A stretch of 64,000 nt of DNA from a phage, in assembly GCA_027337125.1 (NCBI GenBank), contig GCA_027337125.1_3057.1; one strand, 5' to 3'. Below the pieces are notes generated by a model that ran no database searches, was not told the DNA's origin, and saw only the letters and a list, made by a program, of their open reading frames with translations. Shown here one piece after another: positions 42,205 through 46,300 of this stretch. Each line of letters begins with the position of its first letter. Position 1 is the stretch's first letter. A program made the position numbers and the translations under genes.

Positions 42205-42482
42205 TGGCTCAATTAAGCGCAGGGTTTGGTTATGAGTATTATACTGCCCCTCGTCGTGTATCTGTTGCTCCTAAGAAAATTCAAAGTCTTGATGACTTCC
42301 AGGAAGTAGTTCGTAAAGCTTTCCATGACTATGCGAGTTATCTTAAAGAAGATTCACAGGACTGTCTCGAAGAAGATGAAATTGCTTACTATGAGCAGCG
42401 TCTTGAACAGCTTAAAAACCTACATGAGGTTCGTGCAGAAGTTTCAAAGTCTATGAATAAATTGATTAGATTTAAAGAATAA
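42204..42482 (+). CDS. Hypothetical protein (vs.3 position)
   Basis: Start set at Met 15 of the track ORF ([13 protein letters not shown]), TAATG overlap, GAGG RBS. Confidence 0.55.
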
Positions 42483-42484
42483 CT

Positions 42485-42514
42485 GTTTACTTTTCCTCTT
42501 GACTGTGGTATAAT
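42485..42514 (+). promoter_or_regulatory. T4-type early promoter upstream of regB
   Basis: -35 gtttac, 18-nt spacer, -10 tataat; AGGAG RBS follows. Confidence 0.6.
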
Positions 42515-42541
42515 TTTTCTATCAGTTAAGAGGAGAATAAC

Positions 42542-43003
42542 ATGACTATCAACACAGAAGTTTTTATCCGTCGAAATAAGCTCCGTCGTCACTTTGAGTC
42601 GGAGTTTCGTCAAATTAACAATGAGATTCGTGAGGCATCAAAAGCAGCAGGGGTCTCATCGTTTCATCTAAAATATTCTCAACATCTTCTTGATCGTGCA
42701 ATTCAACGGGAGATTGATGAGACATATGTTTTTGAATTATTCCATAAAATAAAAGACCATGTTTTAGAAGTTAATGAATTCCTAAGTATGCCTCCGCGTC
42801 CTGACATTAATGAGGATTTTATTGATGGGGTTGAATATCGTCCTGGGCGTTTAGAAATCACCGATGGAAATCTTTGGCTTGGATTTACAGTTTGTAAACC
42901 TAACGAGAAGTTCAAAGACCCGTCACTTCAGTGCAGGATGGCAATTATCAACAGTCGTCGTTTACCGGGAAAGGCTTCTAAAGCAGTAATTAAAACTCAA
43001 TGA
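42542..43003 (+). CDS. regB: RegB endoribonuclease
   Basis: 153 aa, MTINTEVFIRRNKLRRHFESEFRQINNEIREASK..., same length as T4 RegB. Confidence 0.92.
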   Translation: MTINTEVFIRRNKLRRHFESEFRQINNEIREASKAAGVSSFHLKYSQHLLDRAIQREIDETYVFELFHKIKDHVLEVNEFLSMPPRPDINEDFIDGVEYRPGRLEITDGNLWLGFTVCKPNEKFKDPSLQCRMAIINSRRLPGKASKAVIKTQ

Positions 43004-43010
43004 GGTAAGC

Positions 43011-43556
43011 ATGAGAAAAGCACTACTCGCTGGTCTATTGGCCATTTCAATGATGGCACATAGCTCCGAGCATACTTTCAGTAATGTCCAACTCGATAAC
43101 ATGCGTTACGCGTATCAATTCGGGGAACAATTTTCTAAGGATGGAAAATATAAAACACACAAAAATATCCACAAGAGCGGATTAGGTCATATAATGGCTG
43201 CTATTTTATGGCAAGAAAGCTCTGCCGGAGTTAATTTAAAATCTAAACCAAAGCATCACGCTTATGGAATGTTCCAAAATTATTTGCCTACTATGCGAGC
43301 AAGAGTTAAGGAACTTGGTTATAATATGACCGATGCTGAAATAAAAAGAATGTTGAATAAACGATCCAATTCAGCTTCATGGGCGTACATTGAACTTTCT
43401 TATTGGTTAAATATACATAAGGGTGATATAAGAAAAGCAATATCCTCTTATAATTCGGGATGGAATGTTAAAGCAGGTTCTAAATATGCTTCTGAAGTCC
43501 TAGAAAAGGCTAATTACCTTAAAAATAATAAACTTTTGGAAATAGTAAATGACTAA
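43011..43556 (+). CDS. vs.1: Vs.1-like secreted protein (lysozyme-like/transglycosylase fold suspected)
   Basis: 181 aa with N-terminal signal peptide MRKALLAGLLAISMMAHS; position after regB. Confidence 0.75.
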   Translation: MRKALLAGLLAISMMAHSSEHTFSNVQLDNMRYAYQFGEQFSKDGKYKTHKNIHKSGLGHIMAAILWQESSAGVNLKSKPKHHAYGMFQNYLPTMRARVKELGYNMTDAEIKRMLNKRSNSASWAYIELSYWLNIHKGDIRKAISSYNSGWNVKAGSKYASEVLEKANYLKNNKLLEIVND

Positions 43557-43896
43557 AATTTTGGTTTTATGTATAGGATTAATTTCATTTTCTGCTTATG
43601 CGTCAGCAGATACATCATATACTGAAATTAGAGAGTATGTAAACCGTACTGCCGCGGATTATTGCGGGAAAAATAAAGCATGCCAAGCTGAATTTGCGCA
43701 GAAATTAATATATGCATATAAAGACGGAGAAAGAGATAAATCAAGCAGATACAAAAATGATACTTTATTAAAACGATATGCTAAAAAGTGGAATACCTTA
43801 GAATGTTCAGTTGCGGAGGAGAAAGATAAAGCCGCTTGTCATTCAATGGTTGACCGTTTGGTAGATTCTTATAATCGAGGATTGAGTACTAGATGA
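43549..43896 (+). CDS. Vs-like protein with signal peptide (by position)
   Basis: 115 aa, signal-peptide-like N-terminus, four Cys; naming by synteny only. Confidence 0.6.
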   Translation: MTKILVLCIGLISFSAYASADTSYTEIREYVNRTAADYCGKNKACQAEFAQKLIYAYKDGERDKSSRYKNDTLLKRYAKKWNTLECSVAEEKDKAACHSMVDRLVDSYNRGLSTR

Positions 43897-44372
43897 TTGT
43901 AAAATATATCAAGGGCGATATTGTCGCCCTATTTCTTCAAGGTAATATTATTGCGCATGGGTGCAACTGCTTTCATACTATGGGTTCAGGTGTAGCAGGT
44001 CAATTAGCAAGGGCCTATCCTAAAATTTTAGAAATAGATAAAACCACAACTGAATATGGTTCGCGTGAAAAACTTGGTGATATGTCTATTGTTTTTAAAC
44101 ATAATCCTACAGGATTTGGTATATGCTATAACCTGTATACACAATACGAACCAGGTCCTAATCTTGATTATGGTGCTTTAGTAAACTGCATGATAGAATT
44201 AAATCTACAGGCAGAAACCCTTTTGTTTAAACCAGTAATTTACATTCCACGCATAGGTTGTGGTATTGCTGGCGGTGATTGGGATAAGGTTTCTAAATTA
44301 ATCGACATGTTTACTCCTGATATTGATTTAATAGTGGTGGATTATGAAAGCACATTACCCGCATCCGTTTGA
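43893..44372 (+). CDS. Macro-domain protein (ADP-ribose binding/hydrolase fold)
   Basis: KGDIVALFLQGNIIAHGCNCFHTMGSGVAGQL and IPRIGCGIAGGDW match the macro-domain N-terminal Gly-rich and C-terminal G-x-G-x-x-G motifs (compare E. coli YmdB). Confidence 0.75.
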   Translation: MIVKYIKGDIVALFLQGNIIAHGCNCFHTMGSGVAGQLARAYPKILEIDKTTTEYGSREKLGDMSIVFKHNPTGFGICYNLYTQYEPGPNLDYGALVNCMIELNLQAETLLFKPVIYIPRIGCGIAGGDWDKVSKLIDMFTPDIDLIVVDYESTLPASV

Positions 44373-44556
44373 TCCTAAAAACAAAGCAGAAATTATTCGT
44401 CAATGGGAACGCATTTGCCGTACTAAATGCCCAATTAATAGTCCACATGATGTAGATAAAGACTATATTGGAACATTCGTTGAATATACCTTTATTGATA
44501 AGAAAGGTCGTAAACAGCATGTAGAAGAATATTGCTTAAAGGTTACATGGTTATGA
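44344..44556 (+). CDS. Hypothetical protein
   Basis: 70-aa ORF. Confidence 0.5.
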   Translation: MKAHYPHPFDPKNKAEIIRQWERICRTKCPINSPHDVDKDYIGTFVEYTFIDKKGRKQHVEEYCLKVTWL

Positions 44557-44738
44557 GTTTAAGTAAAGAACAGAAAGATAAATTGTTTGAGCTTATCCAT
44601 GAACTTCTAGATGAGCATACAGAAGCAAACACCTTTTATGATGAATACGGCCCGCTATCTCCCGAACAGCAGGAAGAATTTGCTGAACGGTTTGATAAGA
44701 AAGAAAATGAATTAATAGCTTATGTGAATACACTTTAA
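44532..44738 (+). CDS. Hypothetical acidic protein
   Basis: 68-aa ORF; probable start at 44553 (ATGA overlap). Confidence 0.5.
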   Translation: MLKGYMVMSLSKEQKDKLFELIHELLDEHTEANTFYDEYGPLSPEQQEEFAERFDKKENELIAYVNTL

Positions 44739-44747
44739 GAAGGTGAT

Positions 44748-46277: not shown

Positions 46278-46300
46278 AGTCTCCTTCGGGAGACTTTTTT
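46278..46300 (+). terminator. Intrinsic terminator (agtctcc-ttcg-ggagact + U6)
   Basis: Perfect hairpin then tttttt. Confidence 0.75.

Follow-up and report, generated by a model that had tools for sequence, protein, structure and literature searches.

The gene analyzed here lies in a 64,000-nucleotide stretch of phage DNA (GenBank assembly GCA_027337125.1, contig GCA_027337125.1_3057.1; this whole stretch is called the window below), and its closest described counterpart is the tk.4 gene of phage T4. Annotation of a macro ('A1pp') domain in tk.4 goes back about twenty years in T4-like genomes: a 2006 comparison described it in tk.4 orthologs (PMC1524935), and the T4 tk.4 record has long borne the remark 'contains A1pp phosphatase motif'. 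A role of the gene against DarTG2 was published in 2025. In a bioRxiv preprint of November 2025 (10.1101/2025.11.20.689424), T4 tk.4 was the single significant hit of HIDEN-SEQ, which used a T4 transposon library, on E. coli expressing DarTG2. A clean T4 tk.4 knockout was DarTG2-sensitive, and the gene was named adfM, for anti-DarT factor Macrodomain. In the same work, T4 tk.4 was dispensable on K-12 and needed specifically on the DarTG2 host.

Biochemical work on another phage macrodomain, gp104 of the chimallivirus PhiKZ, demonstrated removal of DarT2 ADP-ribose from DNA, and a conserved Asn (N23) was important in this protein (Cell Rep 2026, PMC13309987). Among cellular proteins, SCO6735 of Streptomyces coelicolor rescues DarT toxicity and strips the thymidine-ADP-ribose made by DarT from DNA more rapidly than either DarG or TARG1 does. 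The Q85A and Q85E mutants of SCO6735 were inactive, N27S was nearly inactive and G128E had reduced activity. Its authors proposed that a backbone-positioned water is the nucleophile and that Gln positions the ribose, and they linked a longer Lys-bearing 'mobile loop' to the high activity on DNA (PMC9411070). The gene found in the window and its anti-DarTG2 role have already been described through the T4 ortholog, and GenBank contains many copies of the window allele. Our additions are the dimorphism of the alleles, the lysine-free (SCO6735-type) catalytic signature and the separation of Tk.4 from the PhiKZ protein that is also named AdfM.

Identity of tk.4 and its macrodomain fold

The open reading frame (ORF) of tk.4 extends from ATG to TGA at 43893..44372 (+ strand, stop codon included) and encodes 159 amino acids (aa). 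Its ATG overlaps the stop codon of the upstream vs gene (ATGA), and at the other end 29 nt are shared with the start of tk.3. The surrounding 2.4 kb matched 750 phage records, nearly all from Escherichia/Shigella T4-like phages, with identity of up to 97.3%. Because the gene order (regB - vs.1 - vs - tk.4 - tk.3 - ... - tk) is the same in the annotated Shfl2 and T4 records, this ORF is tk.4 of a T4-like (Tequatrovirus) phage and the positional and sequence ortholog of T4 Tk.4/AdfM. Synteny of vs, tk.4 and tk.3 is shared with T4, T2, T6, RB69 and Shfl2, and BLASTP aligned the window and T4 proteins over 155 aa with no gaps (58% identity, E=2e-70). The annotation of 43893..44372 as an adfM ortholog encoding a single-domain macrodomain combines the ORF and its position between vs and tk.3 with a Pfam Macro match, an AlphaFold2 model and its fold matches.

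A first-pass annotation, made from the nucleotide sequence, had described macro-domain hallmarks in the 159-aa ORF. All the motifs it quoted were found, and Pfam, PHROG and the predicted fold agree with it. Pfam Macro (PF01661) was matched above its gathering cut-off (34.4 bits compared to 22; E=2.3e-8; model positions 2-117 of 118) and PHROG 335 with E=1.8e-71; a search of 5.8 billion proteins returned 796 homologs at E<=1e-3. Tk.4 contains K-G-D-I (residues 7-10), H22-G-C-N25, G31-S-G-V-A-G36 and I121-G-C-G-I-A-G-G-D-W130, and this match to the macro motifs is far beyond chance. Strands and helices alternate in the AlphaFold2 model (predicted local distance difference test, pLDDT, 93.7; predicted template modeling score, pTM, 0.89), which has the three-layer alpha/beta macro fold. 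The fold check named in the first-pass annotation, a structure prediction followed by structural search, had a uniform outcome: all top matches of the model were macrodomains, and those from Foldseek included TARG1 (E=8e-10) and Poa1p (2e-9). Also retained are the two Gly-rich ADP-ribose/diphosphate-binding loops (G31-S-G-V-A-G36 and I121-G-C-G-I-A-G-G128), whose loss had been named as evidence against a macrodomain; G33, A35, G122 and G124 are invariant in 75 homologs.

Active site and proposed anti-DarTG2 function

The nearest structural and sequence neighbors of Tk.4 belong to the ALC1-like class (TARG1, DarG and SCO6735) rather than to the MacroD, PARG or viral Mac1 types. Tk.4 is an ALC1-like macrodomain with a Gln-type center, and it is not a DarG. 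Its match to the NCBIfam DarG model (NF048014) scored 28.1 bits against an equivalog cut-off of 250 and covered model positions 2-142 of 338 in a protein of 159 aa. The catalytic Lys of DarG (K80, PTKK) is replaced by Q84 (LYTQY), the C-terminal DarT-binding domain is absent, and the neighbors are vs and tk.3, with no adjacent darT.

Three stretches of codons, all on the + strand, make up the active site, whose geometry was inferred from alignments. The H22-G36 codons (43956..44000) encode H-G-C-N-C and the first Gly-rich loop (T-M-G-S-G-V-A-G), a predicted ADP-ribose-binding/catalytic loop in which N25 aligns with N27 of SCO6735 and N22 of DarG, and H22, G23, N25, C26, G33 and A35 are invariant among the 75 homologs. 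The N80-L-Y-T-Q84 codons (44130..44144) place Gln84 where DarG (K80) and TARG1 (K84) have their catalytic Lys and SCO6735 has Gln85; N80, Y82 and Q84 do not vary in either the 75 homologs, which are from phages and metagenomes, or 80 bacterial relatives. The P119-R-I-G-C-G-I-A-G-G-D-W130 codons (44247..44282) specify the second Gly-rich (diphosphate-binding) loop, which is near-identical to PRIGCGLAGGTW of SCO6735 and has P119, G122, G124 and W130 invariant in the 75 homologs. H22, N25, D49, G122, G124 and W130 are likewise invariant in these homologs and in all 80 bacterial relatives fetched.

In the alignments, Tk.4 has a Gln, predicted to be positioned by the loop-1 Asn, where DarG and TARG1 have Lys: the catalytic Lys of DarG, TARG1 and PhiKZ gp104 (PTKD) aligns with Gln84, and the catalytic D125 of TARG1 aligns with A126. 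H24-V25-C26-N27, Q85 and PRIGCGLAGGTW of SCO6735 line up with H22-G23-C24-N25, Q84 and PRIGCGIAGGDW of Tk.4, and the motifs H-x-C-N, N-x-x-x-Q and PRIGCGxAGGxW are common to Tk.4, SCO6735 and BT1257. Gln at the Lys position is a hallmark of the latter two proteins. The sequences of M. tuberculosis DarG and human TARG1 were checked against PDB 5M3I and 2LGR; those of T. aquaticus DarG (5M31), BT1257 and SCO6735 came from PDB alignments, and that of PhiKZ gp104 from the methods of PMC13309987. As judged from these alignments, the T-even Tk.4 family probably uses SCO6735-type lysine-free chemistry rather than that of the DarG/TARG1 type. Such chemistry predicts that Q84, N25 and G124 mutants would abolish protection.

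We propose that Tk.4 is a Gln-type macrodomain that removes DarT2 ADP-ribose from phage DNA as a counter-defence, and we give this reading a probability of about 0.72. The product of tk.4, a stand-alone macrodomain of ~18 kDa, would be made early in infection. The host DarT2 toxin would ADP-ribosylate thymidines in single-stranded phage DNA (TNTC motifs) and block replication. Tk.4 would then bind ADP-ribose between its two Gly-rich loops and hydrolyse the N-glycosidic bond between thymine and ribose. ADP-ribose would be set free and the base restored, so that the target of Tk.4 would be the product of the toxin and not the toxin. The invariant Gln84, held by Asn25, may position the distal ribose and the transition state with no catalytic lysine, and the attacking water may be held by the backbone of the H22-G23-C24-N25 loop. 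The domain identity, fold, orthology and conserved active-site signature are established, as is the DarTG2-specific knockout phenotype in T4; we infer that the window allele, 57-58% identical to T4 Tk.4, shares its target and that an enzymatic activity gives the protection.

The first-pass annotation had suggested counter-defence against DarT-type DNA ADP-ribosylation, and this idea has gained direct genetic support in the T4 ortholog, the only hit of the screen and one whose knockout sensitized the phage. Its analogy to DarG survives as a likeness in function, and weak but specific DarG matches (PADLOC, E=3.6e-7; NCBIfam, E=1.1e-6) are in line with the proposed role; the analogy fails for the catalytic Lys, the DarT-binding C-terminal domain and the toxin neighbor, none of which Tk.4 has. 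Several observations weigh against removal of DarT2 marks by the window protein. The basis in T4 is genetics and structural comparison, and the authors of the preprint called enzymatic ADP-ribose removal 'likely' (10.1101/2025.11.20.689424). The extended Lys-bearing 'mobile loop' (five residues longer than in DarG/TARG1) is not present in Tk.4; BT1257 has a six-residue insertion here relative to the Tk.4 family profile, and the loop of Tk.4 (YEPGPNLDY) is short and has no Lys. We found no published DarTG2 phenotype for any phage with a window-type allele, and the laboratory T-even phages examined (T2, T6 and RB69) all carry the other, T4-type allele, so that none combines the window type with a known phenotype. 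Finally, the closest bacterial relatives are stand-alone genes, which fits general ADP-ribose processing as well as counter-defence.

We further checked these relatives in 80 bacterial loci of the family (34-44% identity, many phyla), clustering every ORF found up to 3 kb away. This clustering yielded no conserved partner gene: a neighbor cluster reached at most 8 of the 80 loci, and no dedicated DarT profile scan of neighbors was run. Recurring neighbor clusters reflected lineage-specific synteny, for example with rpoC/ribosomal genes or a very long, unannotated ORF of housekeeping type. The cellular relatives of Tk.4 look like stand-alone genes, similar to SCO6735. An origin of Tk.4 as an orphan antitoxin captured from a DarTG operon found no support in the 80 loci.

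Divergent tk.4 alleles and alternative functions

Per-gene comparison with T4 gave 57% aa identity for tk.4 and 94-99% for regB, vs.1, vs, tk.3 and tk. The divergent allele forms a cassette of ~470 bp at 43933..44400 (+ strand), within which nucleotide identity to T4 was ~37-87% per 30-nt segment. Sliding identity was near-complete up to 43932 and was >=93% again past ~44400, until a separate tk.2/tk.1 difference near 44580. The T4-type protein is present in T2 (100%), T6 (99%) and RB69 (83% identical to T4). Tk.4 of the window is 55-57% identical to the T4, T2, T6 and RB69 proteins and 97% identical to that of Shfl2. Within Mosigvirus, JS98 has a Tk.4 that is 92.5% identical to the window type and RB69 has the T4 type; therefore, both alleles cross genus boundaries. 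We detected a Tk.4 relative in 2768 phage records by tblastn, ~320 of which carry the window-type allele at >=90% identity. The tk.4 gene occurs as two deeply diverged alleles, of the T4/T2/T6/RB69 type and of the window/Shfl2/JS98 type, in cassettes that are exchangeable among T-even phages.

Distant homologs have 36 positions with >=80% conservation, and the window allele agrees with 35 of them. Five of the 36 are changed in the functional T4 allele, and at four of these five the window allele has the consensus residue (A126G, G127K, D129N and I137L). Such conservation, together with the deviations tolerated in the functional T4 protein, argues at the level of sequence for a catalytically competent window allele. 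This type, carried by more than 300 sequenced phages, resembles the family consensus more than the tested T4 protein does.

At the left edge of the cassette, 20 nt into tk.4, is a perfect 8-bp, GC-rich hairpin (43912..43930; AGGGCGAT-ATT-GTCGCCCT) that is followed by a T-rich stretch and conserved in T4. As a candidate terminator it was rejected: the segment 43870..43950 folds no better than shuffled sequences (z=-1.43; 19 of 200 as good). This hairpin is probably a chance occurrence or a by-product of the conserved KGDIVALF codons.

An alternative is that Tk.4 acts on small ADP-ribose metabolites, as an ADP-ribose-1''-phosphate phosphatase or O-acetyl-ADP-ribose deacetylase like Poa1p, in which case any DarTG2 effect would be secondary or confined to the T4 allele. 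The label of PHROG 335 is 'phosphatase', and the phrase 'contains A1pp phosphatase motif' occurs in the RefSeq notes of both T4 and RB69; however, such labels are domain-name transfers and not assays. Poa1p ranks with the best matches in both sequence and fold, and the His of its H23A structure aligns with the invariant H22 (residue roles in Poa1p were taken from PDB entry titles). The bacterial relatives, which are stand-alone in unrelated neighborhoods and have no toxin partner, also fit a metabolic enzyme. Yet the T4 gene is dispensable on K-12, and a metabolic role leaves its need on the DarTG2 host unexplained. In addition, the Gln-type SCO6735 is a very active DNA thymidine-ADPr hydrolase, and hydrolysis of these small molecules in vitro is a side activity of many macrodomains, which makes the two roles compatible. 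We regard a primarily metabolic function as unlikely.

Somewhat less likely still is a shift in specificity, by which the window allele would erase a conjugate different from that of the T4 allele (for example on a different base of DNA or RNA, at phosphate-linked ends of nucleic acids or linked to protein) and the two-allele polymorphism would be the trace of an arms race with differing ADP-ribosyltransferase defences of hosts. The 57-58% identity inside a sharply bounded cassette, compared to 94-99% in its neighbors, is what such a race might leave, as are the presence of both types across genera (the window type in JS98, the T4 type in RB69) and the change in the second Gly-rich loop (AGGD in the window, GKGN in T4). 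However, the window allele has lost none of the invariant or near-invariant family residues, and of the two alleles it is the one in agreement with the family consensus and with SCO6735. T-even phages commonly exchange early-gene cassettes in mosaic fashion, which needs no functional shift, and an eraser directed at the product has little reason to track variants of the toxin. We are equally doubtful that the alleles differ in their substrate or defence spectra such that the window allele would counter an ADP-ribosylating defence instead of or besides DarTG2, through a lysine-free catalysis uncharacterized in phage proteins. Two options of the first-pass annotation, degradation or sequestration of NAD-derived immune signals (such as the cyclic ADP-ribose isomers of Thoeris) and action on the marks of the phage's own Arg-specific ADP-ribosyltransferases (reversal of Alt, ModA or ModB modification), drew no support from our data or the literature, and we consider them very improbable.

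Early gene block and relation to known systems

In a T4 time course, tk.4 RNA fell into the early class and its protein into the middle class, and the T4 genes of the regB-to-tk block were classed as early RNA (PMC9697503 supplement). Through this ortholog, the 'early-expressed' label of the first-pass annotation is supported. A sigma-70-type promoter-like site (TTTACT-17-TATAAT, with TG before the -10 element) was found as a pattern match in a consensus scan at 42486..42514 (+ strand), upstream of regB, and may act as an early promoter of the regB-vs.1-vs-tk.4-tk.3-tk.2-tk block; promoter-like sites in the region as a whole were no more frequent than in shuffled sequence. Downstream of this site, tk.4 is part of a co-directional, tightly packed block of overlapping genes. 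The late-promoter motif TATAAATA was not found on the + strand in 42401..44400, and no convincing MotA-box middle promoter or late promoter was seen upstream of tk.4. Just after the rI.-1 homolog, a bidirectional terminator-like hairpin (46278..46295; AGTCTCC-TTCG-GGAGACT) has T-runs on both strands and plausibly ends the regB-to-rI.-1 early transcription block.

The vs gene (43549..43896), which overlaps tk.4 by ATGA, encodes a valyl-tRNA synthetase modifier that is 99% identical to T4. It was the most depleted T4 gene in minimal medium in the preprint that named adfM (10.1101/2025.11.20.689424). Two conditionally important early genes, vs and tk.4, are probably translationally coupled here. 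The vs.1 homolog (43011..43556; 181 aa, 99% identical to T4) has a signal-peptide-like N-terminus (MRKALLAGLLAISMMAHS), and a weak match of vs.1 to the SLT lytic transglycosylase domain has been reported (PMC1524935). The vs product, too, starts with a hydrophobic leader, and both genes give the appearance of coding for exported proteins from within an early gene block. On the other side, the interval from tk.4 to tk (44344..44747) contains solely tk.3 (44344..44556) and tk.2, whose true start is likely the ATG at 44553, giving 61 aa with 98% identity to Shfl2 Tk.2. The window has neither the ~360 bp that hold two extra small ORFs in Shfl2 and the closest relatives nor the tk.1 gene of T4. This region of small ORFs is a second variable spot beside the tk.4 cassette.

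Compared to T4 Tk.4/AdfM (NP_049723), the window protein has the same locus (vs - tk.4 - tk.3), falls in the same length class (159 aa in the window, 155 in T4) and has the same single-domain architecture, and the two share all invariant family residues, including H22, N25, D49, N80, Y82, Q84, G122, G124 and W130. They differ in the four extra C-terminal residues of the window protein, which overlap tk.3, at ~65 of the 155 aligned residues, and in the second Gly-rich loop (IGCGIAGGDW in the window, IGAGIGKGNW in T4). The presence of tk.4 can reasonably be taken as a marker of DarTG2 resistance in phage therapy and host-range prediction, and as a putative one where the allele is of the window type.

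The Gln-type ALC1-like proteins SCO6735 (5E3B) and BT1257 (Bacteroides, 2FG1/2AFC) show ~26-29% identity to Tk.4. They are cellular and have a six-residue-longer Lys-bearing mobile loop after the Gln, whereas Tk.4 is a phage protein without it. Human TARG1/OARD1 and yeast Poa1p have the PRIGCG loop in common with Tk.4. TARG1 cleaves thymidine-ADPr DNA, but its K84/D125 dyad corresponds to Q84/A126 in Tk.4; Poa1p is described as an ADPr-1''-phosphate phosphatase. DarG (M. tuberculosis, 5M3I; T. aquaticus, 5M31/5M3E) has Lys80, a C-terminal DarT-binding domain and an adjacent darT, and Tk.4 lacks all three. Finally, PhiKZ gp104, also called AdfM, is a stand-alone phage macrodomain that counters DarTG2, as Tk.4 does in T4. 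It belongs to a different subfamily, being of the DarG type with a retained catalytic Lys (FPTKD), and is imported into the phage nucleus. Against DarTG2, phages have therefore taken up macrodomains of two separate lineages in two independent acquisitions, and both were independently named AdfM: gp104 is DarG-type with Lys and Tk.4 is SCO6735-type with Gln. One name shared by two unrelated subfamilies is a nomenclature clash, and mis-annotation is likely.
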